Positions 2,064-25,978 are shown, numbered from the stretch's first letter. The stretch is DNA of 27,093 nucleotides from an uncultured Anaerolineaceae bacterium (GCA_964557245.1 CAZKZR010000001.1:1-27093); one strand, 5' to 3'. Translations and numbers: made by a program. The notes: generated from the sequence alone by a model not told the origin.

Positions 2064-3218
2064 ATGACCGAACAGCGCATCCCTTTCGTGAAAGTGCAAC
2101 TGGACGATGACGATATCGCCGCCGTCGAAGGGGTCCTGCGCAGCGGATGGCTCACCACCGCCAGCCAGGTCAAAGCGCTCGAAGAGGAGCTGTGCGCCTA
2201 CACCGGCGCGAAGTTCGTCAACGCCGTGAACTCCGCCACCGCGGCCATGCATCTTTGCCTCGCGGCGTGGGACCTCGGTCCGGGCGACGAAGTGATCACG
2301 ACGCCATACACGTTCACCGCGACTGCCAACGTGGTCCTCCACTGCGGCGCCACGCCGGTGCTGGTTGATGTCGAAGAAGGGACCGCCAACATCGATCCCG
2401 CCGCCGTGGAACGCGCGATCACTCCCCACACGAAGGTGATCCTCCCGGTGCACATCGCAGGCGAGCCGTGCGATATGGACGCCCTGAACGCGATCGCCCG
2501 CCCGCGCGGGATCAAGATCCTCGAGGACGCCGCGCACGCCATCGGCTCTATGTACCGCGGGAAGCAGATCGGCAGCGTTTCCGATGCAGCCGCCTTTAGC
2601 TTCTACGCGAACAAAACCATGACCACCGGCGAAGGCGGTGCGCTCGCCACCGACGATGCCGAACTCAGCGCCCGGGTTCGCCGGCTCACGCTCCACGGGA
2701 TGTCCCGCGATGCCTACAACCGTTACGGCGCGGGTGGCAGTTGGCGGTACGACATCGAGGAGTTCGGGTTCAAGGACAACCTGACCGATATCGCGGCCGC
2801 GCTGGGCCGCACGCAACTCGGCAAGCTCGAGGGGTTCATCGAAGAGCGCACGCGCGTGGCCCAGCGCTACTTCGCGAACCTCCGCGACGAAGAGCACATC
2901 ATCCTGCCGTTGTTCAACGAGGATAACCGCCAGCCCTGGCACCTCTTCATGATCCGGATCAAGAACGAGACATCGCCGGTCCAGCGCGATGACGTCATCC
3001 GTGAACTCGCCGAGCGCGGGATCGGCACATCGGTCCATTTCATCCCGCTCCACTATCACTCGGCGTACCAGAAGCTCGGCCGCTGGGCGAAGGGCGATTT
3101 CCCGGTGGCGGAACGCTTCTTCGAGGGCGAAATCAGCCTGCCCATGTACCCCACGATGACCAACGCGGAAGTCGATGACGTTTGTGAAGCGCTCCGAGAG
3201 ATCCTGCATCCGGCTTAG
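2064..3218 (+). CDS. DegT/DnrJ/EryC1/StrS family PLP-dependent sugar aminotransferase
   Basis: Motifs VNSATAAMHL, GDEVIT, PVHIAG, EDAAHAIG and FSFYANKTMTTGEGG (PLP-binding Lys); 384 aa. Confidence 0.96.
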   Translation: MTEQRIPFVKVQLDDDDIAAVEGVLRSGWLTTASQVKALEEELCAYTGAKFVNAVNSATAAMHLCLAAWDLGPGDEVITTPYTFTATANVVLHCGATPVLVDVEEGTANIDPAAVERAITPHTKVILPVHIAGEPCDMDALNAIARPRGIKILEDAAHAIGSMYRGKQIGSVSDAAAFSFYANKTMTTGEGGALATDDAELSARVRRLTLHGMSRDAYNRYGAGGSWRYDIEEFGFKDNLTDIAAALGRTQLGKLEGFIEERTRVAQRYFANLRDEEHIILPLFNEDNRQPWHLFMIRIKNETSPVQRDDVIRELAERGIGTSVHFIPLHYHSAYQKLGRWAKGDFPVAERFFEGEISLPMYPTMTNAEVDDVCEALREILHPA

Positions 3219-3300: not shown

Positions 3301-3861
3301 GTGCATCATCGTTCGCGCACGTTCGTTCTTGGCGCCGTGCTGGCCATCACTCCCGTCCTTGGCGGCGCCTGCGGCGGCAGCAGCCTGGAAAAGGTAGACG
3401 CCGACGACTGGGTAGCTGACGTATGCGATGCCGCCCTCGACTTTCAGGACGACTTTCTCGACGCCGCCGGCGGCCTGGACGTCATCGAAGATGGCGATCC
3501 GGACGAAATCAAGGATGCCGTCGACGAGTGGGTTGATGATGGCTCGGACGCGATCGATGCCTTCGTGAAGGACGTCGAGGATGTCGGCCAGCCGGACATC
3601 GACGGCGGCGCGGACGTCATCAAGGCCTTCCGCGCCCACGCCAAGAAGCAGAAGGAGATACTCGCGGACTTCAAGAAGGACGTGAACAAGCTCGATGACG
3701 ACGATGACGAGGACTTCCGCGACGGCGTCTTCGACATCCTCGACGACGTAGAAGACCCGGACTTCCGCGAGGAACTCGAAGACATCGATGAGAACGACGT
3801 GGACGACCTCATCGACCAGATCGACGAAGAACCCGACTGCGCGAGCGTCCTCTTCAATTGA
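3301..3861 (+). CDS. Acidic lipoprotein, paralog A
   Basis: Signal peptide with lipobox GGAC-GG; motifs KVDADDWVADVC, GQPDIDGG and C-terminal PDC; extremely Asp-rich. Confidence 0.88.
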   Translation: MHHRSRTFVLGAVLAITPVLGGACGGSSLEKVDADDWVADVCDAALDFQDDFLDAAGGLDVIEDGDPDEIKDAVDEWVDDGSDAIDAFVKDVEDVGQPDIDGGADVIKAFRAHAKKQKEILADFKKDVNKLDDDDDEDFRDGVFDILDDVEDPDFREELEDIDENDVDDLIDQIDEEPDCASVLFN

Positions 3862-4424
3862 CGCGCTTCCGCCGGGCCGCGCTACGAGGCGGGTCCGGCG
3901 TGTTGCTCTTCTTCGCCCTGGTCTCGCCGTCGTGCGGCGGCGGCGCGAAGAAATCTGACGCCGATGACTGGGTCGCTGATATCTGTGCCCCGGCCATCAC
4001 CTTGAGCGAAGCTCGCGGCGACGCGCTGCTCGATTTCTTCGCGGTCGATTCTTCGGATGGCCCGGCCATGACGGAGGGCTTCAACCGCTACAGCTCTCGC
4101 TATGGGAAAGGCCTCTCCGATTTCGAAAAAGCCGTCGATGCCTCCGGGCAGCCCGATGTGCTGGACGGCGCGAAAGTCCGCAAAGCGCTGCTTGCATGGG
4201 TCGAAGCCGAGCAAAAGGCGAACGACCGCGCCCATGACGAGGTCGCCGCGTTGAAGAAGGACAGCGAGTTCCTGGCCAGCGACGTCGACGATATCTTCTT
4301 CGACATAGACTTCGCCGATTTCCGTAAAATCCTCGCAGACAGTGGCGCGCGCAGTTCCGCCGATATCATCGCCCTGATCGAGAAGGACCCCCAGTGTGCA
4401 TTCGCTCTCTTCGCCGAAGACTGA
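3858..4424 (+). CDS. Lipoprotein, paralog B
   Basis: TTG start overlaps the stop of A (TTGA). Lipobox-like SPSC-GG; motifs KSDADDWVADIC, GQPDVLDG and PQC. Confidence 0.85.
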   Translation: MTRFRRAALRGGSGVLLFFALVSPSCGGGAKKSDADDWVADICAPAITLSEARGDALLDFFAVDSSDGPAMTEGFNRYSSRYGKGLSDFEKAVDASGQPDVLDGAKVRKALLAWVEAEQKANDRAHDEVAALKKDSEFLASDVDDIFFDIDFADFRKILADSGARSSADIIALIEKDPQCAFALFAED

Positions 4425-4960
4425 AGCCTCGCCGGACCGCGCTTCTCGCGCTGCCGCTGGTGGTGCTGGCGGGCGCCGCATCCTGTGGCGGCAGCGATAC
4501 GGAAAAGGTGGATGCCGACGACTGGGTGGATGACGTTTGCGACGCCACCAGCACCCTCGCCGACGCCGAGGATGACGCCTACAACGCCTATTTCGACATC
4601 GAGAGCGACGATGCCGATGAGATTCGCGACGCCCTTTCGGACTATGTGGATGATTACGCGAAGGCCCTGGACAAGTTCGCGCGCGCCGTGGAACGGGCCG
4701 GCGAACCTGATGTGGACCACGGCGACCGCATGGTCAAAGCCGTGCAGGGCTGGGTGGAGGAGGAGAAGAAGTACGGCGTCCGCGCCGAGCGCGACGCTCG
4801 GAGCCTGAAAACCGTCGATGAGATCGACCAGGTGTTCAGCGATATGAAACTTGCGAACCTTCTCGACTTCCTGGACGACACCGATTCGCGCGATACAAAC
4901 GACATCGTCGAGTTGTTCGACGATAACGAACGCTGCTCCAGCTTCCTGTTCGTCGACTGA
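4394..4960 (+). CDS. Acidic lipoprotein, paralog C (start GTG 4394 or CTG 4421)
   Basis: Lipobox AASC-GG; motifs KVDADDWVDDVC, GEPDVDHG and ERC. Confidence 0.85.
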   Translation: MCIRSLRRRLKPRRTALLALPLVVLAGAASCGGSDTEKVDADDWVDDVCDATSTLADAEDDAYNAYFDIESDDADEIRDALSDYVDDYAKALDKFARAVERAGEPDVDHGDRMVKAVQGWVEEEKKYGVRAERDARSLKTVDEIDQVFSDMKLANLLDFLDDTDSRDTNDIVELFDDNERCSSFLFVD

Positions 4961-5063
4961 GCCGAAAGCAGGGTTTGCAACACTGCGCTGTCCGTGAACC
5001 ACCGTACTGTCGTAGTAGGTGGAGGAACCGCAGAATTGCCAAAACCTCCAGGAGTGCCATCGA

Positions 5064-6197
5064 ATGCACCTGAACTCCTTCGCCCGCGCCGGGCTCCTCG
5101 CCGCCTTGCCGCTTTCGTCCCTGCTCTTTGCCTGTGGTGGCGGCGGCAGCGACAAGAAAGTCGATGCCGACGATTGGGTTGCTGACCTCTGCGATGCAGC
5201 CGCCGACTTCGATAAGGCGAGCGACAAGGCCGGGGAAGCCTTCCTGGATGCTGACTTCGATGACACCAAGGAGGCCAAGGCGGCCTTCAAGGAGAGCCTC
5301 GAAAAGCAGAAGGACGCCCAGAAGGACTTCCGGTCCGACTTCGACAAGATCGGCCAGCCCGACATCGAAGATGGCGACAAGGTGGTCGCCGCTTTCAAGG
5401 ACCAGTTCAAAGCGAACGACAAGATGACCGAGGATGTCGGCAAGGCCGTCGCCAAGATCGATGACGACGACGATTTCACCGAGGAATTCCTCAAGATCGC
5501 GGACGACTTCGATACGCCGGACTTCCGCGAAAAGATGGACGACCTCGCCGACGACAGCGATGACGTGGCGGACCTCATCGATAGCATCGATGCCGACAGC
5601 GATTGCTCCGCCGTCATCTTCGACCAGCCGGGCGCCGACGACACCACCGACGAACCGACCGCTCAGCCTTCCAAGACGACCGTCGCCAGCAAGACCACCG
5701 TCCCGACGACGACCGCGGCCAAGACCACGAACGAGAAGTGGGTTGCAGGCGTCTGCACCTCGCTCGGCGGCTGGATCAAGGACCTCGAAAACGCCAACGA
5801 CAAGCTCGATTCCACGCTCACCACAGCCAAGGACGCGCCCGCGCTCAAGGCGGCACTCGTGGAGTTCATGAAAAGTGGCCAGGCCGAGACGAAGAACATG
5901 CAGAAGGAAGTAGCGGCCTTGAAGGCCCCTGACGTGAAGAACGGCGCGGCGATCCAGCGCACGTTCAACGATGGGATGAGCCAGCTGGTCGCCGTGTTCG
6001 ATGGCCTGGTAACGGAATCCCAGAAGGTCGGCACCTCCTCGCTCGCGCAGACCACCGCGGATGTCGAGCGGCTTTCCAGCGGCATCAGCGACGCGTTCAA
6101 CGATGTCAGCGCCACCTTCGACAAACTCGACGACCTGGACACCGGCGAACTGGACAACCTGTTCGATCAGCGCCCGGAGTGCGCCGGGATCAACTAA
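5064..6197 (+). CDS. Two-domain lipoprotein, paralog D (two family domains joined by a Thr-rich linker)
   Basis: AGGAG lies 9 nt before ATG 5064. Lipobox LFAC-GG. Domain 1: KVDADDWVADLC..GQPDIEDG..SDC. Linker: KTTVASKTTVPTTTAAKTT. Domain 2: WVAGVC..APDVKNG..PEC. Confidence 0.9.
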   Translation: MHLNSFARAGLLAALPLSSLLFACGGGGSDKKVDADDWVADLCDAAADFDKASDKAGEAFLDADFDDTKEAKAAFKESLEKQKDAQKDFRSDFDKIGQPDIEDGDKVVAAFKDQFKANDKMTEDVGKAVAKIDDDDDFTEEFLKIADDFDTPDFREKMDDLADDSDDVADLIDSIDADSDCSAVIFDQPGADDTTDEPTAQPSKTTVASKTTVPTTTAAKTTNEKWVAGVCTSLGGWIKDLENANDKLDSTLTTAKDAPALKAALVEFMKSGQAETKNMQKEVAALKAPDVKNGAAIQRTFNDGMSQLVAVFDGLVTESQKVGTSSLAQTTADVERLSSGISDAFNDVSATFDKLDDLDTGELDNLFDQRPECAGIN

Positions 6198-6220
6198 CGC
6201 TGCCCCCGAACCACGCTTGC

Positions 6221-6246
6221 TGGCGCGGATGCTAGACTCCGCGCCA
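6221..6246 (+). promoter_or_regulatory. Perfect 9-bp inverted repeat enclosing an extended -10 upstream of phaC
   Basis: TGGCGCGGA-tgctagac-TCCGCGCCA; TG-C-TAGACT occupies 6230-6238. Confidence 0.5.
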
Positions 6247-6267
6247 CTAGCGATGGGAGGCTCCCCG

Positions 6268-7314
6268 ATGACGCAGGCGCCGGGACTCGAAACGGAAGCT
6301 GAACTCCTCCGCATGGCCCAGGGCCTGCGCGATGCGCTGGGCGCGCCCGCGCCGGTAGCGCTCTCCCGCCGCGTCATCGCCGGATTCCGCGGCAAGGCCC
6401 GCATGTATTACTACCCGCCGAAAGACGGCGGCCGGTTCAAGACGCCGCTCCTGCTCTTCCCCTACCTGGGCATCAGCAGGCCGTACATCTTCGACCTCCG
6501 TCCCGGTGAATCGTTCGCGGAGTTCCTCTATGAAGAGGGGATCCCGTTCTACCTCGTGGACTGGGGCATTTTCGGGCCCGAAGACCGCGAAATGGGCATG
6601 GATGACGTCATCGGAGACATGGTGCCTTCGCTGGTGCGGCAGGCCGTCGCCCACTCCGGCGCCGACGCGGTCACGCTCTTCGGCTATTGCATGGGCGTCC
6701 CCATGACCAGCTCCGCGCTCGCCTCCCAGCCGGACCTGCCGGTGAAGAACTATCTTTCCATGGTCGGTCCGATCGACTTTTCCGTCGGCGAATTTCCAAT
6801 GATGACGACCGAGGACCGCTTCGACGTGGATTCCATCGTTGAAACGTTCGACATGATGCCGGCGGAGTTCGTGCGATCCGGGTTCAAGATGCTGAACCCC
6901 ATGGGCGATATTTCTCAGGCGCAGTCGCTCCTCCAGAACGCGGCGAACCCGCAGTGGCTCATCGGCTACAAGGCGATGAACCGCTGGGCAAGCGAGTGGC
7001 TCCCCCTGCCGAAGCAGTTCTTCCGCCAGTGGGTCCGCCACTTCTACCAGGGGAATGAGCTGGTGCAGGGGAAGTTCCGCGTGCTCGGTGAAGCCGTGAA
7101 CCTGCGCGATATCACCGTCCCCGTGCTCTGCGTCGGCGCCAGCAAGGACGATATCGTCCCGGCGGACAGTGCCCGCGCCCTGGTCGAATCGGTCGGGAGT
7201 AAGGACAAGCAGTTTGTCGAACTCGAAGGCGGCCACATCTCGGTGATTGCGGGCCGCCGCGCGAAACAGGTGGTGTGGCCGGCGTTGTTGGAGTGGCTGC
7301 GAGAGCACGACTAG
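6268..7314 (+). CDS. phaC: Polyhydroxyalkanoate synthase catalytic subunit, class III/IV-like
   Basis: GGAGG lies 7 nt before ATG 6268; 348 aa. Motifs TPLLLFPYLGISRPYIFDL, LVDWG, lipase-like box GYCMG (Cys), KDDIVP (Asp) and GGHIS (His). Confidence 0.85.
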   Translation: MTQAPGLETEAELLRMAQGLRDALGAPAPVALSRRVIAGFRGKARMYYYPPKDGGRFKTPLLLFPYLGISRPYIFDLRPGESFAEFLYEEGIPFYLVDWGIFGPEDREMGMDDVIGDMVPSLVRQAVAHSGADAVTLFGYCMGVPMTSSALASQPDLPVKNYLSMVGPIDFSVGEFPMMTTEDRFDVDSIVETFDMMPAEFVRSGFKMLNPMGDISQAQSLLQNAANPQWLIGYKAMNRWASEWLPLPKQFFRQWVRHFYQGNELVQGKFRVLGEAVNLRDITVPVLCVGASKDDIVPADSARALVESVGSKDKQFVELEGGHISVIAGRRAKQVVWPALLEWLREHD

Positions 7315-7454: not shown

Positions 7455-7979
7455 CTAGTCAGCCAATTCTCCAGGCCCCCGCGTCCCACCAAGGTCCTGT
7501 CCCTGTCCCTCGACCACGTAACGGATCGCATCCTCCATGGCTTGCCGTGTGTAGAGATACCGGGTGCTGCCATGACGGGTCCAAACTCGCTGGCCCTCAT
7601 CCACCAACCCGTCTTCTCGGAGCCGGCGAGTCGACCACGCTTTGAATGCGTTCATCACCTGCTCCGGAGAGGTGTTCGCCTTAACCACCGTGTGAACGTG
7701 ATTCGTACGCACATTCATGGCGAGCAAATCCCATGAACGGTGCTCCGCGACTGACTCGATCGCCTTCGCAATGGATGATCGGGCGTCAACTGTGAACGTC
7801 ATGGACGCTGCTGATAAGCGGCGTTTCGCCTGCGCCAACCGCGATTCGCTCGGCTCGACCGATGCCGTTACCCCGGGACTGCGCTGTCGCTCGCTGGACC
7901 CACGAGCATCACCATGCAGCCACGTTCCGTACGCAGTGAACGTGATGAGGTACGTGCCAGAGTCCTGCCGCTCCGTCAC
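7455..7979 (-). mobile_element. Y1 HUH transposase, IS200-like / REP-associated tyrosine transposase (RAYT)
   Basis: Motifs YLITFTAYGTWLHGD, HUH motif NHVH, FKAWSTRRL, VWTRHGS and catalytic Tyr in AIRYVVEGQ; 174 aa. AGGAG lies 8 nt before the GTG; palindromes flank the gene. Confidence 0.85.
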
Positions 7980-9256: not shown

Positions 9257-11599
9257 CTACGGCACGATGACGCGGCCGCGGACCATGTCCCGGAGTGTCT
9301 CGCTCAACTGGTCATAGGCCACGATCAGCCGCTCATCGATGTCCGTGCCGCTTGTGTAGACGGCGAAGCCGATCTGCCCCGCCGGTTCGTATTCCATGAC
9401 GCCCGAGCGCCCGTAGTGGCCCCAGCGCTCGCCGTAGATACGCCCTTCTTCCCGCCAGCACGGGCAGAACGGATAGGTGCCCAACCCGGCGTACTGGAAC
9501 TCGGGACCGAGGAAGTCGGTCATCGCATCGCGCGTCGCTTCCGAGAGCAAACGGTCCGTTCCGTAGAGGGCGAGCGCCCAGGCCGCGATGTCGCCAACAG
9601 TGGAATAGATACCTGCTGACGACCAGAGCAGGCCGTGGTACTCGAACGCCGCGGTCGCCGGGCCAGTACTCGATGACGAGCGGAGAATGCCCGAACTGGA
9701 ACGCAGCGCGGCGTTGCTCTGGGGATGCGTCGAAGCCGCGGTCGGCGCGATCTCTTCGTCCATTTTGGTCCCGGTAAGTCCGAGCGGGTCCAGCAACCGT
9801 TCGTGGAGCGCGGTGGTATACGGCGTTCCTGTGACCTTCTCGATGACCAGCCCGAGCATGTAGTACCCCGGACTGGAGTAAAGAAACCCTGTACCCGGTT
9901 CGAAAGCCAGGGGAGTCCGCGACGCGGCCAGCAGCGCGTCGGCCGGCGCGATCCCGTCGGTCGCCATCAGCCCCGAACGATGTTGGATAAGCTCCCGGAC
10001 GGTGTAGTCCCCGTCGTGAGCGATCCATGGCACGTAGTTCGAAACTCGCGCGTCCAGGTCCACCTTGCCTTCTTCCACCAGCTGGAGAACGAGGGCGACC
10101 GTGAACGTCTTGGTGACGCTGGCCGTCGGGTAGACGTAATTCGACGGCAACGGCTGTCCGGTCTGGACGTTGTTTCCGGACGCTGCCTGCCACGTCGAAC
10201 CGTTCCCCATGGCGATGGCGACGGCGGTGCCATCGAGTCCGTTGCTCAAACGCCAGGCATCGAGCGCCGCCTGCAGTTCCCCGGCGCTGACCGTTGCGGG
10301 TTCGTTGGGCGCGGGCAAAACATCGGGCGAAGGCGGTTCCTCCAGGACCACCGCACTCGCCGCACGGAGCGCGATCCCGACTCCCGACGGCGGGACCGCC
10401 CGGTGCTCGGCTCGCAGGTCTCCCGTGGGCCGCAGTTCGCTCACAAGGAACGCCGCGAGCAGCGTGAAAACGCCCATCGCGGCCACGGCCGGCACCGCGA
10501 ACCGCCTCAGCACCGACTGGTCCGTAGAGATTCGCTGTGGGCCCGCCCGGGGAGTGATGTGAAGTTCCCGCCGCGCCGCGAAATCTTCTACCCATCCGAA
10601 CGCCAGCATGCAGACGAAGGTCACGGCCAGGACGATCGGGAAGGCCGCGACATCCCGCAGCCATGCGGGGTGCGGGTCGGCCCAGAGGAGTTCGTACATC
10701 ACGAAGAGGCCAGCCGCGTGCCACAGGTAGATCGTGAAGATGCGGTCGTTCACCCAGGCGACGAACCGCGCCGGACCGGGCTGCGTGGCGAGCCGGCGCA
10801 GCGGCGCTTCGAACGTCAGCGCGATGCCCAGCCAGGTAAGACCGACCAGCAAGTGGGCGGGATACGAAGCGTTGACCACCATCCCCGGCACGTCCTGGGT
10901 CGCAATCCAGGCGGTAGCCCCGATCGCGAAGACGAGCGTTCCGGCCGCCCGCACTCGCGTCCCGATCCTGCCAACCAGACCGGCGTTGTACGCGAAACCG
11001 AGCAACCAGAAGATCGAGAACGTCGCCGCATCTTCAAACTGCCACGGCACGGGGTGGCCGGCCCGGGCGCGCATTTCGAAGACAATCGCAAAGCCCAGGG
11101 GGATGCCGATCACGGCGACGGACAGGCGCCGGAACAGCCAGAGCAGCAGCGGGCTGAGGAGGATGAGCCAGGTCAGGCAGCGCAGGTACCAGAGCACCGC
11201 CCAGAAGGTGACTCCCCAGCCGGAACCCTGGGGATCCCAGATGGGGAAGATCCACCACGGCAGCTGGTCCCAGCGCATCGGCTGCCCCAGTTCCACCTTC
11301 ACCTGCGAGTGCAGCGCCATGCCCGGGACAACGACCAGGGCAAAGGCCCACAGCGGTATGAGCAGCCTTCGGAAGCGGGCTATCAACACGTGCCGCCAGG
11401 AGGCTCGTTCCAGGGAGTGGGCCATCAGCGAGCCGGCGACGAAGAACATCGCCGGCATGGAGGCGACCAGGTAAGAGAGCCACGCGAAGCCGAACGTGTG
11501 CCAGGCCAGCACCCGGATGATTGCGACCGCGCGAATCAGGTCCAGGAACTGGTTGTGCGGCTTGTTCTGTGCCGGACCTTCGGCCGTAGCGTGTTGCAT
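9257..11599 (-). CDS. Acyltransferase-3 (OafA-like, polytopic) fused to a beta-lactamase/class C-type serine hydrolase
   Basis: N-terminal FLDLIRAVAI..H, MPAMFFVAG, RFRRLLIP, LWYL and FTIYLWH with about 10 hydrophobic segments. C-terminal SxxK (ASVTK), LIQHRSG, FEPGTGFLYSS and GHYG. Confidence 0.88.
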   Translation of the reverse strand: MQHATAEGPAQNKPHNQFLDLIRAVAIIRVLAWHTFGFAWLSYLVASMPAMFFVAGSLMAHSLERASWRHVLIARFRRLLIPLWAFALVVVPGMALHSQVKVELGQPMRWDQLPWWIFPIWDPQGSGWGVTFWAVLWYLRCLTWLILLSPLLLWLFRRLSVAVIGIPLGFAIVFEMRARAGHPVPWQFEDAATFSIFWLLGFAYNAGLVGRIGTRVRAAGTLVFAIGATAWIATQDVPGMVVNASYPAHLLVGLTWLGIALTFEAPLRRLATQPGPARFVAWVNDRIFTIYLWHAAGLFVMYELLWADPHPAWLRDVAAFPIVLAVTFVCMLAFGWVEDFAARRELHITPRAGPQRISTDQSVLRRFAVPAVAAMGVFTLLAAFLVSELRPTGDLRAEHRAVPPSGVGIALRAASAVVLEEPPSPDVLPAPNEPATVSAGELQAALDAWRLSNGLDGTAVAIAMGNGSTWQAASGNNVQTGQPLPSNYVYPTASVTKTFTVALVLQLVEEGKVDLDARVSNYVPWIAHDGDYTVRELIQHRSGLMATDGIAPADALLAASRTPLAFEPGTGFLYSSPGYYMLGLVIEKVTGTPYTTALHERLLDPLGLTGTKMDEEIAPTAASTHPQSNAALRSSSGILRSSSSTGPATAAFEYHGLLWSSAGIYSTVGDIAAWALALYGTDRLLSEATRDAMTDFLGPEFQYAGLGTYPFCPCWREEGRIYGERWGHYGRSGVMEYEPAGQIGFAVYTSGTDIDERLIVAYDQLSETLRDMVRGRVIVP

Positions 11600-11758: not shown

Positions 11759-12796
11759 TTGATCCTGGCCTCCGGGGCATGGCTGTTGCTTGCCCTGAGC
11801 TGTACCGGCCCGGCGCCGGCCGGGCAGAGTTCCGCGAGCATCGTGACCCTGGCCCAGGACCGCGTCCAGATGGACGCAGGTCTTGATTCGCCGGAGTTGC
11901 TGGGCTTTTCGCTTGCGCCGACCTGGTCGGCCGCTCCGCAGCAGCGACTTCGCGGCGGGCGGAGCGCATGCGCCACTGCCTACCCCTCGGGTTACACAGC
12001 GGGCAAGACGGCCCTGCGAACGCTGACGTCCGGCTCGCTCAAACGTACCTACCGCGTGCACATTCCCGCGCAAACGAAAAACGATCGGCCGCTCGCTGTT
12101 GTCCTGAACTTCCACGGGCGCAGCGGCACCGGCATCGATCAGGAGATCACGTCGGGTCTGCTTCCGGTCAGCGACCGCGAGGGCTTCATCCTCGTTTCGC
12201 CCGACGGGACTGGCACCCCCATGGGCTGGTCTGCCGGCGCCACGCCGGCCAACAGCACCGATGACGTCCGGTTCGTGTCGGACATCCTCGACACGCTCCA
12301 GCGTGAGCTCTGCGTGGACACGTCGCGGGTGTACGCGACCGGCTTCTCCAACGGGGCGTTCATGACCTCGCGGCTCGCCTGCGCGATGCCCGACCGCATC
12401 GCGGCAGTCGTCGCTGTCGGCGGTGTCGATTTCCCGGAGGGAAAGTGCCGCTCCACCGTGCCGGTGCTCGCCATCCATGGCACCGCCGATGAGGTCGTGC
12501 CGATCGATGGCGGGATTGTGCGCGAGTGGCACTACCAGGGCGCGAACGCTTCGATCGAAGACTGGGCCGCAAACAACGGCTGCCGTCCAGTTGCCTCTAC
12601 CGTGACGCTCGCTGCCGGCGTAACCGTCGATGCCTTCGCCGACTGCTCCGCTCCCACCGCGATCATCCGCATCGCGGGCGCCGGTCATCTCTGGCCAGGC
12701 GCCCCCGGCTACTCGGCGGGGACCCCCGGCGCAAACGTCGCCGGCGCGAACATCGTCTGGCGTTTCCTGTCGCAGGGCGTGGTCGGCGGCAATTAG
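11759..12796 (+). CDS. Secreted or lipoprotein esterase, PHB depolymerase / LpqC family (start uncertain)
   Basis: Motifs RTYRVHIP, VLNFHG, GFILVSPDG, DDVRFV, GFSNG (nucleophile), IHGTAD and GAGHLWPG; signal-like N-terminus ending LALSC. Confidence 0.88.
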   Translation: MILASGAWLLLALSCTGPAPAGQSSASIVTLAQDRVQMDAGLDSPELLGFSLAPTWSAAPQQRLRGGRSACATAYPSGYTAGKTALRTLTSGSLKRTYRVHIPAQTKNDRPLAVVLNFHGRSGTGIDQEITSGLLPVSDREGFILVSPDGTGTPMGWSAGATPANSTDDVRFVSDILDTLQRELCVDTSRVYATGFSNGAFMTSRLACAMPDRIAAVVAVGGVDFPEGKCRSTVPVLAIHGTADEVVPIDGGIVREWHYQGANASIEDWAANNGCRPVASTVTLAAGVTVDAFADCSAPTAIIRIAGAGHLWPGAPGYSAGTPGANVAGANIVWRFLSQGVVGGN

Positions 12797-13890
12797 GTTG
12801 CGCGGTCGAGCGGCAGCGTGAACGAGAGTGTGGCCCCTCCCGCGGCTTCGTTGCGCGCCGAAATCGTCCCGCCGTGCGCCTCCACGAGCCGCCGTGCGAT
12901 GGCCAGCCCAAGACCGCTTCCGGTCGAATCCGCCGCCTTCCGGTAGCGTTCGAAGATGTGCTCGAGTTCCTCGGCGGGGATGCCCGGTCCGGTGTCGGAA
13001 ACGGAGATCGTCGCTTGCCCGCTGTCCGATTCGAGCATGAGGCTGACCGTTCCACCCTCGGGCGAGTGGCGCAGCGCGTTCGAGACCAGGTTCTCCAGCA
13101 CCTGGCGAACGCGCCCGGCATCGGCGTCCGCGCTGACCGGCGTTCCCGTCACGGTGATGGTCTGCCGCTTCCGCACAGCCTGTGCCGCCGAGGCGGCGGC
13201 GACATCCTGGAGGAGGCTCAGCAGATCCGTCGTTTCGCGGTGCAGGTGCAGGACGCCGGCCTCCGCCGACGAGAGCGTCCCGAGGTCATCCACGAGCCGG
13301 GCGATAACGCTGACCTCTTCCAGCACGCCGCTGAGCCGTTCACGGTCGGCCGGGTACACGCCGTCCAGCATGCCTTCGACGTTGCCCCGTATGACGGCGA
13401 GGGGGTTCCGCACCTCGTGCGCGATATCGGCCACGAGGGCTCGCCGCTGCTCTTCCGCGCCCTGCAGCCGGCTCGCGGTCACGTTGAACGACTCGGCGAG
13501 TCCCCGCATCGGCGGCGGGCCATTGCTATCCACGCGTGCCGAGTAGTCGCCTGTTGCGAGTTGGGCCAGCCCCGCCGCGACGTTGTCCAGGGGCCCGGTA
13601 AATCTCCGGGCGATGCGCGTCACCCCGAAAATGAGGAACCCCAGGAAGGCCAGGAAGAACACCCCGCCGAACGGCGGCGAGGGGCGGCCGTCATCCCGCC
13701 GCCAACCGCCGCCGTCATGGTTCGAAAACAGGATGGCGGAAACAGCTGCAAAGAGGGCCACGATCACCAGCAACGCCAGCAAGCCGACCAGGATTCGGCG
13801 GCCGAAGCCACTCCGCGCGCGCCGGGGAGGCGGCCATGGCTCGCCCTCCGGCCACCAGGGCGGCCTCGTCCGTGGCGGCCGCCCGGTCAT
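12793..13890 (-). CDS. Sensor histidine kinase (2 TM, HAMP, HisKA, HATPase), BaeS-like
   Basis: Motifs ADIAHEVRNPL (H-box), NLVSNALRH, DTGPGI and GSGLGLAI; start overlaps the regulator stop. Confidence 0.95.
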   Translation of the reverse strand: MTGRPPRTRPPWWPEGEPWPPPRRARSGFGRRILVGLLALLVIVALFAAVSAILFSNHDGGGWRRDDGRPSPPFGGVFFLAFLGFLIFGVTRIARRFTGPLDNVAAGLAQLATGDYSARVDSNGPPPMRGLAESFNVTASRLQGAEEQRRALVADIAHEVRNPLAVIRGNVEGMLDGVYPADRERLSGVLEEVSVIARLVDDLGTLSSAEAGVLHLHRETTDLLSLLQDVAAASAAQAVRKRQTITVTGTPVSADADAGRVRQVLENLVSNALRHSPEGGTVSLMLESDSGQATISVSDTGPGIPAEELEHIFERYRKAADSTGSGLGLAIARRLVEAHGGTISARNEAAGGATLSFTLPLDRAT

Positions 13891-14579
13891 CGCCGCGACT
13901 CCGGCTGTTCGGCGAACCGGTAGCCCAGCCCGTACACCGTCTGGATGTACCGGGGATGCGCAGGGTCCGGTTCGATCTTCTTGCGGATGTTCTTGATGTG
14001 GGAGTCGATCGCCCGTTCGTAGGACTCGAAGGCGATGCCGTGCAGCAGGTCCAACAGCTGTCCGCGGGTGAAGACGCGTCCCGGCTGCCGCGCGAGTTGC
14101 GCCAGGAGCTGGATCTCCGAGGCCGTCAGGTCCGCCGCGCGACCACCAACGGTGACGCGCAAACGCGACACGTCTACTTCGACATCGCCCGCGCGAATGA
14201 CCTCTGCCGGGCCTGCGGCCAACTCTGCCCGCCGCAGCACCGCCCGCACCCGGGCGACCAGCTCGCGCGGGCTGAACGGCTTCACCACGTAGTCGTCGGT
14301 GCCCATTTCCAGCCCTGCTACCCGGTCCGACTCTTCGCCTCGGGCTGTGAGGATCACCACCGGGACGTTCGAAGTGCGCCGCAACTCCCGGATTACGTCC
14401 AGGCCGTCGCGCCTGGGCAACCCGAGGTCCAACACCACGAGGTCCGTCCCCTGGCGCGCTTCCCGCAGAGCCGAATCGCCGTCCGCGACGACCGACACTT
14501 CGAACCCGGCCGAAACCAGGTAATCCCGCACCAGCGCGCTGATCTTGGGCTCATCTTCCGCGACGAGGATGCGTGGCAT
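13887..14579 (-). CDS. OmpR-family response regulator
   Basis: Motifs RILVAEDE, VVLDLGLP, ILTAR, DDYVVKPFSPREL and wHTH RAIDSHIKNIRKK..TVYGLGY; AGGAG precedes ATG 14579. Confidence 0.95.
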   Translation of the reverse strand: MPRILVAEDEPKISALVRDYLVSAGFEVSVVADGDSALREARQGTDLVVLDLGLPRRDGLDVIRELRRTSNVPVVILTARGEESDRVAGLEMGTDDYVVKPFSPRELVARVRAVLRRAELAAGPAEVIRAGDVEVDVSRLRVTVGGRAADLTASEIQLLAQLARQPGRVFTRGQLLDLLHGIAFESYERAIDSHIKNIRKKIEPDPAHPRYIQTVYGLGYRFAEQPESRR

Positions 14580-14612
14580 GAGTCGGTCTCCTGCGGATAG
14601 TTCATCACGAAC

Positions 14613-14666
14613 GGCCGCCCCCGGCACGAGGGCACGGGAGCGGCCTACGGGCACTCGTAGTGCCCG
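14613..14666. repeat. Two adjacent intergenic palindromes, GTAG-type REP-like
   Basis: 14613-14622 GGCCGCCCCC and 14636-14645 GGGAGCGGCC pair at 9/10, preceded on the minus strand by GTA(G). 14648-14666 is CGGGCACT-cgt-AGTGCCCG (8/8). Confidence 0.6.
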
Positions 14667-16945: not shown

Positions 16946-19774
16946 TCAGGCGGCCTTCTGCAATTGCCTCGGCGCGAGCTCGATCACCTGCGCCGGGGCC
17001 TTGTGGGATTCGCGGTACCGCTGCGCGAACCCGCCGACGAAGAACGCGAGTGCCATCAGTTCGGCGCCCTCTTCGATGACGGTGATCGTCCACGCGTGCG
17101 ACGCGAATCCGTCGATTGCGACCGTCAGTACCGCGAACGGCGCCGCGCCGAGGAAGTACAGGATGGCCTTCGGGTGTTCGAACACCTGCTTCCAGAGCAG
17201 CGCCGAGATAGCCATGCCGGTCAGCCCGTAGACCGCGACGATGAAGTCGCTCGGGCGGTGGAACCCGAACGGGTGGTCGAACGGAGTCGTCGCCGAAATC
17301 AGGCCGCCGAGCTTGCCGTGAATATCCGGCGTGGCATCGAACGCGAGAATCGCGAACGCCAGGCCCCAGGCGCCCCAGAGGTCGCGGTAGATGGCCCGTC
17401 CGCCGTCCTTCCGCCAGGCGGAGATGCCCATCGTGCCCGCCACCAGCATCATTGCCGACGACAGGAAGGTGACGGGCCCGAAGTCCCGGAACAGGTCCGG
17501 TTCGGCGCTGCGGGGGTCGATGGCCGCGGAACCGGCCAGCGCGGTGGCGGCGAACACTCCCGTGAATACGACGAGCGCAGGGGTGAGGTACCGCGTGCGG
17601 GCCAGGCGGCCGGCAAACGCCTCGAGGGCCCTCGCGGCCGGGACAATCCCTTTGCTCGCGGTCTCCGAGCGGCCAGCGGCTTCGCGAACCCGCAGCACGG
17701 AGGCGCCGGCCAGGAACACCCCCGCCGCGAGCGCAGCCGCGGATGCTCCACTGACGGCGGCCGCTTCCAGCCCGAAGGCGGCGCCGGCGGCGATCGTCGC
17801 GACGGCAAGGACGGGCGATGACGCTCGCGAAGCCAGGAATTCGTGGCGGAACATCCAGGCGGTTGCGGCCGCGGTCAGCGCGTAGGCGGCGGCCGCCAGC
17901 ATCGTCGTTTCACTCTCGCCGGGGACCATCGGGATGTTGGTGTCCTCGAACAGGCCCGCGATGTTCGCGCTGATGTTGAACGCAAGGTCGATGCCCGCGC
18001 CGAGAGCGCCAACGCCGGCGATCAGCCAGAGGAAGCTCCCGCCCTGGTCGGCCGCCGAGGCGGATTGCCCGGTCTTCCAGAAGGCGCGGAAGGCGAGCAG
18101 CGCCGCGAGACCCGAGACCGCCAGCGCGGCGTACGCCACCCGGTCCATTGCGGTGCCCGAAAGCGACCCGCCGGCGAGCACCGCCGTCCCGGCGATGGCT
18201 CCAACTGCCGCCACCGAGACCAGCCCGGCCGCGTTCGGCTGGCGCAGCTTTGCTGAAGCGGCCGGGAGCGCCATCCAGCGGCTCAGCGCACCGAGGTGCA
18301 GCCGCTCATGCAGGCGGAACGGGATGTGGCGAAGGGCCTGGTCGAACAGGACCGCGCGCAGTGCCCGCTGCGATCGGAACGGCCGCGCCGCGAGGTAGGC
18401 AAAAGCGCCGAATCCCGGGATGGCGCCGAGGACGAACACCGGCGCAGAGTGCACCGCGCGAGCTTCGCGCCTGGCGTCCGCGTTGCGCAGTCCGGACCAT
18501 TCGCCCTTCAGCCGGGCGGCCAGCGTCCAGCCGCTGCGGGCGATGGAACCCAGCGGGAAGCGCAGGGGCACACTCATGGCCAGGTGGGCGCCGAGGCCAG
18601 CGGTCGCAGCGGTCATCTCGGGAGCGGCCAGCGAAGCGCGCGCTGCTTCGGCCTCGGCCGGTTGCAGCAGGCCTTCGTTGACCCAGTTGTCGATGCCGGC
18701 GGTCGCGATGTCCGTCGCCATCCGCTCGCCGCCCGAAGACAGCCGCTTCACTCCGCGGAACCAGCCCGGCACGTCGATGATTGCCGTGGCGATGCGCAGC
18801 GCTTTGCTCACGTAGCGCCGCTCGCTGGCGTGCCATGCGCGCTGAGCAATGCCGTAGTTGGCGGCGGAGATGCGCAGGCTGTTCGCGCTGGCGTCGCCGA
18901 GTTGTGCCTCAATCTGGGGCAGGTGTCGCTCGAGGTAGGCGTTCAGCCGGCCCACGTTGATCTCATCGAACGAGGGATAGAGCCCGGCCCGCAACGAGCG
19001 CCAGAGCACTCGCGGCCGCAGGAACGGGGACACCAGGTTCGATTCGAGGTCGATGATCCGGTACGCGCCGTCCGTGCGTTCGATGAGGTTGCCGATGGCG
19101 CGCGGGTTGTACGAAGCCACCTGCCACGGCGGCAGCCCGGCCTCTTCGAAGTGGCCCTGGAGCCGGTTCAGGAACGTCCGCGCGGTTTTCGTATCCCGCG
19201 GGAGCGTACCGCGAACTAACTCGGTGACCAGGCTGTAGCGCCCGTCGTCGCCGAGCGTGACATCCAGCACCGGTGAGACGTGGTTCTCGCCGAACCAGTA
19301 CTCGGTGAGCAATCCCGCGATCGCCCGCCGCTCAGTGGCCGCCGTGAATGCGGCTTCGTTGGTGGTGTAGGGGAAGGCGGACTGGAACGAGAGCGCGTAG
19401 AGCAGTTTCACGGGCCTGGTCGGCCGGTACACCTTCGTCGCCGTGCCCCTGTCGTAGTCCAGCACCACATCACTCGAAATCGAGCCGGTCAGCACGATCC
19501 CGGTCTCCGGCACTGATGTGGCCGGGGCAACGGCCTCAGCGGTGGCGGCGCCACGCCGGAAAGCGAGCACCAGCCCCGCGCCGCCGAACGCGACCGCAAG
19601 GCTCAGCGCGAACGCGGCCGCCCAGGCCGGCTGCGCGGCTTGTGTTGCCTCGAATAGCGCTGCGGCGGCGAAGAAGATGCCGACGGCGATCAGTGACCCG
19701 GCAGCGGCAAGTCGGCCGCTTCCGTGAGTGTCAGCCGTACCGAAGTCCTGGTGTGCAGGCGTCCAGGTGGACAT
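16946..19774 (-). CDS. 942-aa membrane protein: 2 TM, protein-kinase-like domain, multi-TM C-terminal region
   Basis: GGGGAG SD. Kinase-like elements ATKVYR, HVSPVLDV..SLVTELVRG, GNLI and RIIDLE, followed by many hydrophobic helices. Confidence 0.8.
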   Translation of the reverse strand: MSTWTPAHQDFGTADTHGSGRLAAAGSLIAVGIFFAAAALFEATQAAQPAWAAAFALSLAVAFGGAGLVLAFRRGAATAEAVAPATSVPETGIVLTGSISSDVVLDYDRGTATKVYRPTRPVKLLYALSFQSAFPYTTNEAAFTAATERRAIAGLLTEYWFGENHVSPVLDVTLGDDGRYSLVTELVRGTLPRDTKTARTFLNRLQGHFEEAGLPPWQVASYNPRAIGNLIERTDGAYRIIDLESNLVSPFLRPRVLWRSLRAGLYPSFDEINVGRLNAYLERHLPQIEAQLGDASANSLRISAANYGIAQRAWHASERRYVSKALRIATAIIDVPGWFRGVKRLSSGGERMATDIATAGIDNWVNEGLLQPAEAEAARASLAAPEMTAATAGLGAHLAMSVPLRFPLGSIARSGWTLAARLKGEWSGLRNADARREARAVHSAPVFVLGAIPGFGAFAYLAARPFRSQRALRAVLFDQALRHIPFRLHERLHLGALSRWMALPAASAKLRQPNAAGLVSVAAVGAIAGTAVLAGGSLSGTAMDRVAYAALAVSGLAALLAFRAFWKTGQSASAADQGGSFLWLIAGVGALGAGIDLAFNISANIAGLFEDTNIPMVPGESETTMLAAAAYALTAAATAWMFRHEFLASRASSPVLAVATIAAGAAFGLEAAAVSGASAAALAAGVFLAGASVLRVREAAGRSETASKGIVPAARALEAFAGRLARTRYLTPALVVFTGVFAATALAGSAAIDPRSAEPDLFRDFGPVTFLSSAMMLVAGTMGISAWRKDGGRAIYRDLWGAWGLAFAILAFDATPDIHGKLGGLISATTPFDHPFGFHRPSDFIVAVYGLTGMAISALLWKQVFEHPKAILYFLGAAPFAVLTVAIDGFASHAWTITVIEEGAELMALAFFVGGFAQRYRESHKAPAQVIELAPRQLQKAA

Positions 19775-23421: not shown

Positions 23422-24363
23422 CTAACGCCAGAGCACCGCGACCAGTTTCTCCAGTGCCTCTCCCGCCCGCGGCCCCGGCGCGCGGAGGAAGAGCGAGGTA
23501 TCGAGCACGGCGACGCGGTCCTGTTTGACGGCGGGCACTCCTGCCCAGGCTCGGTCGGCTTTGATCTGCGCATCAAGCCCGCCCTGCCCCGAAGGGAGGA
23601 TGAGCACGGCCTCCGGAGCGAGCGCGGCGGCGGCGCCGACATCAATGACCCCAAAACCCGGTATTGGCCCGCCATCCGCGACGGAACCAAGCACGTTGGT
23701 TGCTCCGAGGTATTCCAGCAGGCTCCCGATATAGGTCGCCGAGCCGCCCCCGAAGACGTCCCGTCCGCCTCCGGTCAACACCAGCACCCTGGGCGCGCCG
23801 CCGCGGGCCGCGGCCACACCGCGGGCGGCCTCCGTGCGCGCTTCGAGTTGATCTCGCGCGGCCGCTGCCTCCGGCCCATGGTCCGTCGCCTCTCCCATCG
23901 CCGTCAGGGCCGCCAGAACCTCGGAGAACGAGTTCGCCTTCAGCATGTAGACCGGGCGGCTGAAGCGGTCGAAATCCCGTGTCCGGCCGGCCTGGTAGGC
24001 CGCGTCAGCCAGCACAAGGTCCGGCGCGAGCGCCTCGATGGCGTTGAAGTCGGGAGAAATGGCAGAACCGACAAGCTTCGCCGCGGGCGCCACATCCGCC
24101 GGCGTGTCGGAGGTGCGGCCCAGTACCTCCAGACCGATGGCCACGGCGTAATCGGCCGCGGCCGGGCTCAAGGCCACAACGGTCCGCACTTCCTCGGGCA
24201 GCGAAACGCTCCGCCCCGTCATGTCTGTGACTTGCCGGCCCCCGTTGGTGCCGCTTGCGGTGACCGTGGCCGTCGGCGAAGGCCTTGGCGGAACGGCCGG
24301 CGCCGCTTTCCCGCAACCGGCGAAGACGCCGGCGAGCAGCGCCACCGCCAGCCACCGTTTCAC
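23422..24363 (-). CDS. ABC transporter substrate-binding lipoprotein (BtuF / iron-siderophore, helical-backbone type)
   Basis: Lipobox FAGC; motifs VTDMTGRSV, TVVALSP, PDFNAIEALAPDLVL, GATNV and RAPGPR. GTGA overlap with the cofC stop. Confidence 0.9.
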   Translation of the reverse strand: MKRWLAVALLAGVFAGCGKAAPAVPPRPSPTATVTASGTNGGRQVTDMTGRSVSLPEEVRTVVALSPAAADYAVAIGLEVLGRTSDTPADVAPAAKLVGSAISPDFNAIEALAPDLVLADAAYQAGRTRDFDRFSRPVYMLKANSFSEVLAALTAMGEATDHGPEAAAARDQLEARTEAARGVAAARGGAPRVLVLTGGGRDVFGGGSATYIGSLLEYLGATNVLGSVADGGPIPGFGVIDVGAAAALAPEAVLILPSGQGGLDAQIKADRAWAGVPAVKQDRVAVLDTSLFLRAPGPRAGEALEKLVAVLWR

Positions 24364-25013
24364 GCGCGTGCTGCGAGGCGCGCTTCAACGCCAATCGACT
24401 GCAGGTACCGGCCGGCTGCGCCCTGCCGCCCCCGGGGCGCCCTCAGCAACTCGACGATGTCATCGGCGGTATCAAGGTCCAGGCGCAGTTCACGGTTCGG
24501 ACAGACCGCGACGTGCATGCCGGCCTTGCGCGCCGCCGCTGTGTGGCGGGCGAATGACGCTGCCCCGTACGCGAGCGGGAAGCGTCCAGGCGGCTCGAGA
24601 ACCATCGCGTTCGTACCGCCGTCCCGGCTTTCCACCACGGCGATGGCGTTCGGACGCGACATCGAGAGCAGGTAGTCCACGGCTTCATTCGTCGCGAGCG
24701 GGAGGTCCGCATGGAGGATGAGCACCCGCTCCCGCCCGCTGCCTTCCGTCATGAGCGTCGCCAGAGCCGCTTCCAGTTGCCCGTTCAGGCCCTCGACGTC
24801 GGCGGATTCGGGCATCACGCGCGCCTTGCCCGCGGCGGCCGCTCGCACCCGCGGGTCGGCGGTCAGGACCACGGCCGCCGGACCAGCCGCGTGCAGCACC
24901 GATTCGAGCGTGATGATCGCCAGTGTTTCCCGCTCCTCCGGCGAAAGCAGGGGCGCCAGCCGGCCCTTCGCGCGGTCCAGCCGGTTCACCGGAATGAGCA
25001 CGGGAACGCTCAC
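24360..25013 (-). CDS. cofC: 2-phospho-L-lactate/phosphoenolpyruvate guanylyltransferase (F420 biosynthesis; FbiD)
   Basis: Motifs VLIPVN..AKGRL, HADLPL, DGGTNA, YGAASFARH and LDLDTADD; directly after cofD. Confidence 0.92.
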   Translation of the reverse strand: MSVPVLIPVNRLDRAKGRLAPLLSPEERETLAIITLESVLHAAGPAAVVLTADPRVRAAAAGKARVMPESADVEGLNGQLEAALATLMTEGSGRERVLILHADLPLATNEAVDYLLSMSRPNAIAVVESRDGGTNAMVLEPPGRFPLAYGAASFARHTAAARKAGMHVAVCPNRELRLDLDTADDIVELLRAPRGRQGAAGRYLQSIGVEARLAARA

Positions 25014-25942: not shown

Positions 25943-25948
25943 CCGGCG

Positions 25949-25954
25949 ATCGTA
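25949..25954 (-). promoter_or_regulatory. -10 box TACGAT, 6 nt before the cofD GTG (leaderless-type)
   Basis: The minus strand reads TACGAT-cgccgg-GTG, with no SD. Confidence 0.55.
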
Positions 25955-25978
25955 ACCGGCACGGGATGCTGCGTCGCG

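Follow-up and report, generated by a model that had tools for sequence, protein, structure and literature searches.

The stretch of DNA considered here, hereafter the window, comprises 27,093 nucleotides from an uncultured Anaerolineaceae bacterium (GCA_964557245.1, CAZKZR010000001.1:1-27093) and carries on its + strand, between positions 3301 and 6197, four co-oriented genes, here called A, B, C and D, that together encode five copies of one domain of ~160 amino acids. Judging from sequence comparisons, these genes belong to a large, unnamed and generally acidic lipoprotein family, of which they are among the most acidic members. The function that we favor, with a probability of about 0.4, is that of an anchored polyanionic surface coat that would bind hard divalent cations (Ca2+, Mg2+) and set the charge of the cell surface.

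Gene A (3301..3861, +), recognized from its open reading frame (ORF), lipobox, profile match, AlphaFold2 (AF2) model and composition, encodes a lipoprotein precursor of 186 amino acids and is likely to start with the GTG at 3301, GGAGAGGG being found 5' of this codon. Gene B (3858..4424, +), a lipoprotein-like paralog of 188 amino acids supported by ORF, profile match, lipobox scan and composition, likely begins at TTG 3858 with a 4-nt overlap with the stop codon of gene A; this TTG is the sole in-frame start giving a complete signal peptide, the later start called for gene B in another assembly (P0001, 174 amino acids) leaving just 11 residues ahead of the Cys. Gene C (4394..4960, +), a lipoprotein precursor of 188 amino acids identified by the same four lines of evidence as gene B, likely starts at GTG 4394, which has GAAGGA upstream and lies within a 31-nt overlap with the end of gene B. 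The end of gene C is separated by 103 nt from the start of gene D (5064..6197, +), the precursor of a two-domain lipoprotein. The frame of the latter gene opens at GTG 5019 (5019-6197, 392 amino acids), and ATG 5064, preceded by CCAGGAG, is taken as its likely start; the ortholog called in another assembly (P0187, 99% identical to the D2 query across the whole query) has the same 377 amino acids that result from this choice. Gene D consists of domain D1 (5133..5624), an acidic copy recognized by alignment, profile, tree and AF2, of a Thr/Pro/Ala-rich linker (5625..5711) and of domain D2 (5706..6194), a mildly acidic copy recognized by alignment, profile and tree. The start-stop overlaps point to a joint translation of A, B and C, and the four genes are probably organized in one operon.

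The original prediction had described four co-oriented genes carrying five domain copies with a set of common motifs, and both ORFs and alignment bear this out, all motifs being present as they had been written. The K[VS]DADDWV-type motif occurs as KVDADDWVADVC in A, KSDADDWVADIC in B, KVDADDWVDDVC in C and KVDADDWVADLC in D1; the central turn reads GQPDIDGG, GQPDVLDG, GEPDVDHG and GQPDIEDG, respectively, and the C-terminal Cys is found in the contexts PDC, PQC, ERC and SDC, the corresponding elements of D2 being WVAGVC, APDVKNG and PEC. In the alignment of the five domains, with D split in two, the identity to A ranges from 24 to 45% and the invariant positions are W, V, C, P, D, G and the C-terminal C. 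The DADDWV codons vary at their third positions in all four genes (e.g., GAC/GAT and GTA/GTC/GTG/GTT), as the same prediction had stated. Likewise, the lipobox Cys is followed by GG in all four proteins, and the PROSITE pattern PS51257 fits A, C and D but fails with B, which has a Pro at position -2. In the product of gene A the signal peptide spans residues 1-23 and precedes Cys24 (codon 3370) of the lipobox LAITPVLGGAC, so that the mature protein has 163 residues; the lipobox Cys of the others are Cys26 at 3933 in B, Cys31 at 4484 in C, whose n-region is rich in Arg (RRR...PRRTALL), and the Cys encoded at 5133 in D. On the strength of the predicted signal sequence and lipobox, A-D can be classified as bacterial lipoproteins, that is as presumptive substrates of Lgt and Lsp. 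An RR pair followed by hydrophobic residues is found in the n-regions of B (RFRRAAL, 3858-3935) and C (PRRTALL, 4394-4486) and is lacking in A and D; under a loose pattern this feature is present in 32 of 187 family proteins, and some B-type orthologs have it as well (e.g., P0024, RRRFGAVLL), so that for part of the family export in the folded state through the twin-arginine translocation (Tat) pathway is possible.

None of the four proteins finds a match above the curated cut-off in Pfam or NCBIfam, the best sub-threshold matches (DUF2383, Apolipoprotein and Tape_meas_lam_C) being of the compositional, helical kind; the same negative outcome was obtained when ten distant members of the family were scanned against Pfam, and the family profile matched among PDB sequences nothing but coiled-coil and designed-bundle noise (best expectation value, E, 5e-4 over 70 residues). 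A search of the literature on acidic lipoproteins in Chloroflexi or Tepidiforma retrieved no description of the family; a match naming Tepidiforma proved to be unrelated. The earlier statement that no named family accommodates these proteins is therefore upheld by Pfam, NCBIfam and PDB, and the profile search of protein databases that had been proposed at the same time has delivered a family devoid of any characterized match. Indeed, the five-domain profile, when run as a word-indexed search against 5.8 billion proteins, yielded 40 relatives, the names of which, where given, are all "hypothetical protein" and one of which comes from a metagenome-assembled genome (MAG) of a "Dehalococcoidia bacterium", whereas an exhaustive HMMER search with a 25-sequence profile against 1.84 billion representatives of 50%-identity clusters gave 2629 matches at E ≤1e-3, 1344 at ≤1e-10 and 43 at ≤1e-30. 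Every named member of the family that was examined is again a "hypothetical protein". Two distant members come from MAGs of Actinomycetota, and the likeness to actinobacterial WxxxVC...PxC lipoproteins mentioned in the original prediction is borne out in part, insofar as the wider family extends to that phylum, the host of the window being instead a member of the Chloroflexota.

Most family members have ~185 amino acids and a single domain, many have ~380 amino acids and two domains, and one has three. The distant members retain an aromatic residue separated by four residues from the first Cys, a G-x-P-D turn and the Gly that follows it, and the C-terminal Cys. Among 233 near-full-length domains, [WYF]xxxxC (the aromatic residue being mostly Trp) is present in 228 and exactly two core Cys in 215, while the lipobox is found in 175 of the 211 proteins considered for this feature. 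The median composition of the 233 domains is 23% Asp+Glu as against 9% Lys+Arg, and the acidic fraction reaches ~40% in some members. Two metagenome proteins deviate from this architecture, one (P0038) joining the N-terminus of window A to a C-terminus of the PF04371 (agmatine deiminase-type) kind while in the other (P0032) the C-terminal half of A is preceded by an unrelated N-terminus; faulty assembly of very short contigs probably accounts for both chimeras.

The AF2 model of mature A, built with 25 aligned sequences, is an all-helical bundle predicted with high confidence (predicted local distance difference test score, pLDDT, 93.9; predicted template modeling score, pTM, 0.86), in keeping with the helical-bundle domain that had been proposed from the sequence. 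Three long antiparallel helices (residues 11-39, 44-72 and 80-106) are followed by four short ones (113-126, 132-137, 142-152 and 155-161), and a small beta bridge, which pairs residues 8-9 (the Lys-Val preceding DADDW) with residues 74-75 (the Gln-Pro of GQPD), ties the N-terminus to the conserved GxPD turn. In this model the residues conserved throughout the family fall in helix 1, in the turn between helices 2 and 3 and in the last helix; one end of the bundle would bring together the N-terminus, the Trp, the first Cys, the GxPD turn and the short C-terminal helices, which carry the last Cys, while two Asp-rich loops, at residues 40-47 (EDGDPDE) and 107-113 (DDDDDED), would lie together at the opposite end. 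Both Cys columns are invariant in the five-domain alignment and also, together with the Pro and Gly columns, in two alignments of diverse members; the two conserved Cys are therefore likely to form a disulfide. As to D, the model shows two helical domains connected by a disordered Thr/Pro-rich linker (pLDDT <50 at residues 165-193), and its overall scores (pLDDT 78.8, pTM 0.50) include a pTM that is consistent with a flexible arrangement of the two domains.

A Foldseek comparison of the A and D models with the PDB gave no match at E ≤0.001, the best values being 0.25-0.4 with template modeling (TM) scores mostly <0.45 and the best matches being BRIL fusions and designed bundles. A general likeness can nevertheless be drawn with CyanoQ (PsbQ), 4HB_MCP, PcaY and Adeh_2942, all extracytoplasmic up-down helical bundles of ~150 amino acids, CyanoQ being also lipid-anchored; Foldseek places PcaY_PP and Adeh_2942 among its weak matches (ranks 22 and 44, E 2-3, TM ~0.3, not significant), whereas neither A-D nor the ten distant members match PsbQ, 4HB_MCP or the HBM sensor domain above the Pfam cut-off, and the predicted topology of the array domain differs from CyanoQ and the 4HB sensors by the addition of four short C-terminal helices and of the Cys pair. 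The array is a set of tandem surface lipoprotein paralogs of a known sort, but one built of an unnamed domain family with a new-looking helical model, and the only classes to which its products can be assigned are those of bacterial lipoproteins, by their predicted signal sequence, and of domains with a conserved Cys pair.

The most conspicuous property of the array is its acidity. Mature A contains 60 Asp+Glu among its 163 residues (36.8%; net charge -47), a value close to the ~60/162 previously counted by hand, and the Asp+Glu content of the other copies is 32% in D1, 30% in C, 21% in B and 16% in D2. The designation "hyper-acidic" given to the whole array by the original prediction is thus appropriate for A, C and D1 and not for B and D2. 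The Asp:Glu ratio is ~3:1 in the array lipoproteins (21-37% Asp+Glu) and ~1:1 in the other proteins of the window, nine of which contain 7.5-15% Asp+Glu and have isoelectric points (pI) of 5.0-9.6; the acidity is particular to the array lipoproteins and not proteome-wide, and these nine proteins speak against an acidic proteome of the halophile type. A profile made of distant members only scores 120 bits with D2, 98 with A, 66 with C, 65 with D1 and 32 with B, D2 being nearest to the consensus of the wider family, which suggests that the hyper-acidic copies are derived. Furthermore, 12 A orthologs that are 51-75% identical to window A share 13 invariant Asp/Glu columns, and in another 11 such columns the conservation reaches at least 90%; charge is selected site by site, beyond the bulk composition. 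His and additional Cys are scarce in A-D, which argues for hard cations over transition metals as ligands.

With each GTDB species represented by one genome, a scan with a profile made from A orthologs identified 13 loci (designated here by L numbers), 12 of which are in MAGs labeled Chloroflexota and one in a MAG labeled only "bacterium"; the labels of the former are Dehalococcoidia, Ca. Amarobacter glycogenicus (Ca. Amarobacter belonging to the class Tepidiformia), Thermoflexaceae, Chloroflexia and "Anaerolineaceae". Since the proteins flanking the array in the window are 91-94% identical to those of L003, L004, L007, L009 and L014, we infer that the window belongs to the same Tepidiformia/Dehalococcoidia-like clade as the related loci. 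With the domain profile, the tandem arrangement is recovered at 13 other genome loci (E 1e-18 to 1e-73; 1e-72 for gene A), each of which has 2-5 tandem domains, and a neighbor-joining tree resolves subfamilies A, B, C, D1 and D2, each common to several genomes. Relatives differ in the number of genes at the locus, which ranges from 1 to 4: the window, with A, B, C and D, has the fullest set seen, L003 and L004 have A, B and D, L005 and L006 have A, C and D, L008 has A and D, L014 has B and D, L009 and L012 have D only and L001/L002 has A and C only, so that B orthologs are found in L003, L004 and L014 and C orthologs in L001, L005 and L006. L007 and L013 were left out of these gene counts, as a 100-N assembly gap lies within their arrays (5924-6023 and 1274-1373, respectively); what might pass for a decayed gene fragment in L007 is in fact this gap, located inside a B-type gene. 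Both gaps suggest that assemblers and scaffolders break at this paralog-rich locus and that the gene counts of MAGs may be underestimates.

This distribution bears on the idea that the paralogs join into hetero-oligomers with a mechanical or organizing role, as a scaffold or spacer that would lie between the membrane and either the wall or an S-layer, conceptually akin to helical envelope lipoproteins such as Lpp. In most loci, even in L010 and L011, which are distant, the two-domain gene D comes after at least one single-domain gene, the overlaps between A, B and C suggest coupled synthesis and the long linker of D is flexible in the model, all of which speaks for a scaffold; on the other hand, the loci that have D only or A and C only imply that no fixed partnership is required, and like-charged acidic surfaces should repel each other unless bridged by cations. 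A scaffold is therefore quite improbable, the least probable of the functional explanations that we have weighed.

Upstream of the array lies a gene for a DegT/DnrJ/EryC1-type (PseC/ArnB-like) sugar aminotransferase (2064..3218, +) and downstream of it a gene for an alpha/beta hydrolase resembling the class III polyhydroxyalkanoate synthase PhaC, although below the curated cut-off (6271..7314, +, start approximate). The order DegT-array-PhaC-like is kept in L001-L005, L007-L009, L012 and L014 and partly in L006, L013 and L015, whereas CvpA/Rrf2 and PAC2/amidase genes flank the array in L010 and L011, two loci that are more distant, and two distant single-domain members (P0033 and P0040) are found in unrelated neighborhoods. 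The PhaC-like neighbor had brought phasins into consideration, but A-D have no match with the Phasin Pfam entry and all four carry export signals. The DegT neighbor invites a different thought, namely that the array proteins act in envelope assembly or in ligand binding through their conserved pole (Trp, disulfide and GxPD turn), the ligand being for instance an amino-sugar wall glycopolymer derived from the activity of DegT and the acidity having no more than a tuning role. DegT/ArnB-family enzymes make amino sugars able to carry a positive charge, the gene order is retained in most loci of the clade and the positions of the family-wide conserved residues in helix 1, helix 2-3 turn and last helix resemble a site more than they resemble general packing. 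However, the synteny is limited to fairly close relatives and may reflect mere inheritance, and it is absent from L010, L011 and the distant members; a structural role would account just as well for the conserved Trp, the Cys pair and the turn, and the fold comparison with the PDB revealed no known binding domain. All considered, we regard a ligand-binding role of the pole as rather unlikely.

Rates of nonsynonymous (dN) and synonymous (dS) substitution, obtained by Nei-Gojobori counting between the window and six related loci, give dN/dS values of 0.06-0.40 for the lipoprotein domains and of 0.035-0.15 for the flanking genes; the ratio is below 1 in every pair and, as dS is saturated (0.7 to above 2), can be read only in this sense. 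The selection at the protein level that had been deduced from the codon differences in DADDWV is supported by these values. The dN of the lipoproteins is 2-8 times that of the flanking genes, and compared with L003 the identity is 93% for DegT, 91% for the hydrolase, 82% for A and D1, 78% for D2 and 53% for B. Gene B is the least conserved and fastest evolving copy (dN ~0.4), its orthologs being ~53% identical where DegT is 92-93% identical. At the DNA level the paralogs are 60-81% identical over at most 68 nt, in the motif regions only, and a scan with Tandem Repeats Finder (TRF) returned four tiny rows with scores ≤38 and no meaningful repeats; so short and low an identity, together with the lack of repeats, indicates that no recent duplication, gene conversion or phase-variation machinery is at work. 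To judge from these comparisons, the paralogs form an old set on which purifying selection, though relaxed, is acting, and genes have been lost and gained at a single locus. The "diversifying expansion" invoked by the original prediction is not supported, since the subfamilies are old and orthologous in other genomes and no gene-wide positive selection is apparent.

The same data dispose of the suspicion that the ORFs arose by chance in a sequence rich in GC and in GAC. This suspicion arises because long - strand ORFs overlap the array (e.g., 4100-5647 and 4836-6404), as commonly happens in GC-rich DNA; the + frames are taken as the real genes because it is in these frames that purifying selection and the matches with the family profile are found. 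An artifact is refuted by the homologs in 13 other genomes and in the 2629 cluster representatives, by the dN/dS values, by the confident models of mature A and D and by the synonymous differences within an invariant motif, and its probability is negligible.

The varying number of genes, the elevated dN of the lipoproteins and the rapid evolution of B might also be viewed as traces of an arms race, in which outward-facing and strongly negative proteins, as these are predicted to be, serve as a variable shield, decoy or immunity system against cationic attackers such as antimicrobial peptides, bacteriocins, lysozyme-like enzymes or phage receptor-binding proteins. A gene encoding a CdiI_3 (contact-dependent inhibition immunity) domain follows the distant family member P0033 on two contigs from different samples, an adjacency that is the sole hint of a link to toxin immunity. 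The dN/dS below 1 in every pair is at variance with such a contest, as are the subfamilies, which are old and orthologous instead of arising from recent lineage-specific bursts, and the lack of phase-variation repeats and of long identical tracts suitable for gene conversion. In addition, the PADLOC models of defense systems match none of A-D at E up to 0.01, a scan of viral contigs found no relatives of the family and many acidic positions are strictly conserved, unlike those of a hypervariable surface. A shield function is accordingly unlikely, although it is the most serious competitor of the cation-binding coat.

Comparison with well-known arrays of surface lipoproteins leads to a similar picture. 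The Vlp, Vsp and Vsa arrays of Mycoplasma are also composed of tandem surface lipoprotein genes that vary in number between strains, but the present array has no in-frame repeats, no homopolymer or invertible switches and no long identical DNA between copies, its products are predicted to be folded bundles and not repetitive extended chains, and selection is purifying; with TRF scores and paralog identities as low as those given above, it is not a phase-variable array of the Mycoplasma type. The OspC/Vsp, PFam54/CspA and BBK32/FbpA C-terminal domains of Borrelia resemble the array proteins in being small, lipid-anchored, mostly helical surface paralogs present in multiple copies and evolving faster than housekeeping genes, and the BBK32 and FbpA domains are among the weak Foldseek matches (rank 46 in one comparison and rank 32 in the other). 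Yet no significant similarity in sequence or fold exists (E >1, TM ≤0.4), the array proteins have the Cys pair and an extreme Asp content, their genes are chromosomal, in tandem and orthologous across genomes, and the host is a free-living member of the Chloroflexota without an animal host.

Several other features of the window may be recorded. Upstream of the DegT gene, two + strand ORFs (607-1200 and 1250-2002) have no match in Pfam or NCBIfam, the second being 68% identical over 246 amino acids to an ORF at the same position in L014. Just 3' of the PhaC-like gene, an IS200/Y1-type transposase-like gene (7455-7979, -; PF01797, E 1.5e-9) has a 55%-identical copy at the equivalent place in L003, so that it may be a resident (RAYT-like) gene and not a recent insertion. 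Farther downstream, positions 9257-11599 (-) encode a 780-amino acid fusion of an Acyltransferase_3 membrane domain and a serine beta-lactamase/PBP-like domain, 82-83% identical in L003 and L007, which is probably an enzyme modifying an envelope polymer. There follow a BaeS/BaeR-like pair (12793-14654, -), in which the histidine kinase (12793-13890) and the OmpR-family regulator (13887-14654) overlap by 4 nt, and a 942-amino acid ORF (16946-19774, -; predicted pI 9.6), which matches no entry of Pfam or NCBIfam at E up to 1e-5 and is either a large uncharacterized protein or a GC-rich chance ORF over real + strand genes. Finally, positions 23422-27082 (-) encode a Peripla_BP_2 binding protein, a CofC-like guanylyltransferase, CofD (the 2-phospho-L-lactate transferase of coenzyme F420 synthesis) and a Wzy_C/O-antigen-ligase-like membrane protein.

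If the array proteins are a polyanionic coat, how could they be arranged in the envelope? After export, A-D would most likely be held at the cytoplasmic membrane, on its outer face, by a lipid attached to the N-terminal Cys. Chloroflexota are without lipopolysaccharide and the pattern of their outer-membrane genes is like that of monoderm bacteria, the number of their membranes being debated and their cell envelope poorly understood (PMC8871954); both the absence of lipopolysaccharide and the monoderm gene pattern imply that a lipoprotein so anchored would face the wall or the exterior. Each domain would be a compact bundle having its conserved pole of Trp, Cys and GxPD next to the membrane anchor, with the disulfide of the Cys pair tying the C-terminal helix to helix 1, while the remaining surface, variable in the family and packed with Asp in the lineage of the window, would present the two Asp loops at the pole distal to the membrane. 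The resulting polyanionic coat could bind and buffer Ca2+ and Mg2+ and thereby set the surface charge of the envelope, and the various paralogs, including the two-domain D with its flexible linker, could place the charge at different distances from the membrane.

A number of observations weigh against this picture and account for the tentative form in which it is offered. B and D2 are conserved while being just moderately acidic, so that charge alone cannot be the entire function, and the lipobox of B (SPSC) is atypical. A scan of A-D for EF-hands (PS00018, DxDxDG) gave no match, DxDxD-type strings such as DGDPDE and DDDDDE being all that is present. The neighborhoods of P0033, P0040 and L010/L011 have no partner in common across lineages, a scan of the array for promoters and terminators found nothing above chance, and two runs of mean-field covariation analysis on 265-269 domains were too noisy, indel-edge artifacts dominating, to lend support to the model.

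Calsequestrin is a high-capacity, low-affinity acidic Ca2+ buffer, and the mollusc proteins Asprich and Aspein are Asp-rich proteins that control mineral formation. By analogy, the array proteins have in common with them a very high Asp+Glu content, an excess of Asp, runs of Asp (such as DDDDDED) and the lack of a canonical EF-hand, but fold and origin are unrelated, the array encodes membrane-anchored bacterial lipoproteins and their cation binding is putative. A second parallel concerns the wall and lipoteichoic acids of Firmicutes, which are anchored surface polyanions of cells without an outer membrane, bind Mg2+ and Ca2+ and set the surface charge; these are phosphate-containing glycopolymers, whereas the array products are proteins, and the parallel would be a purely functional one.

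What could then be the significance of the family for the organisms that possess it? A domain family that is absent from Pfam, NCBIfam and PDB is now defined by a confidently predicted fold, a clear signature and an unusual acidity, and even if its function should turn out to be mundane it represents a clean new family for annotation. By extension of the teichoic-acid analogy, it might be conjectured, as a rather long shot, that in Chloroflexota and some Actinomycetota the family is a protein-based surface polyanion doing the job of teichoic acids, namely the storage of divalent cations and the setting of surface charge and, perhaps, the control of encrustation by carbonate or phosphate minerals, with the set of paralogs tuning charge density and reach. 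The family is a concrete candidate for how Chloroflexota may build a charged surface.

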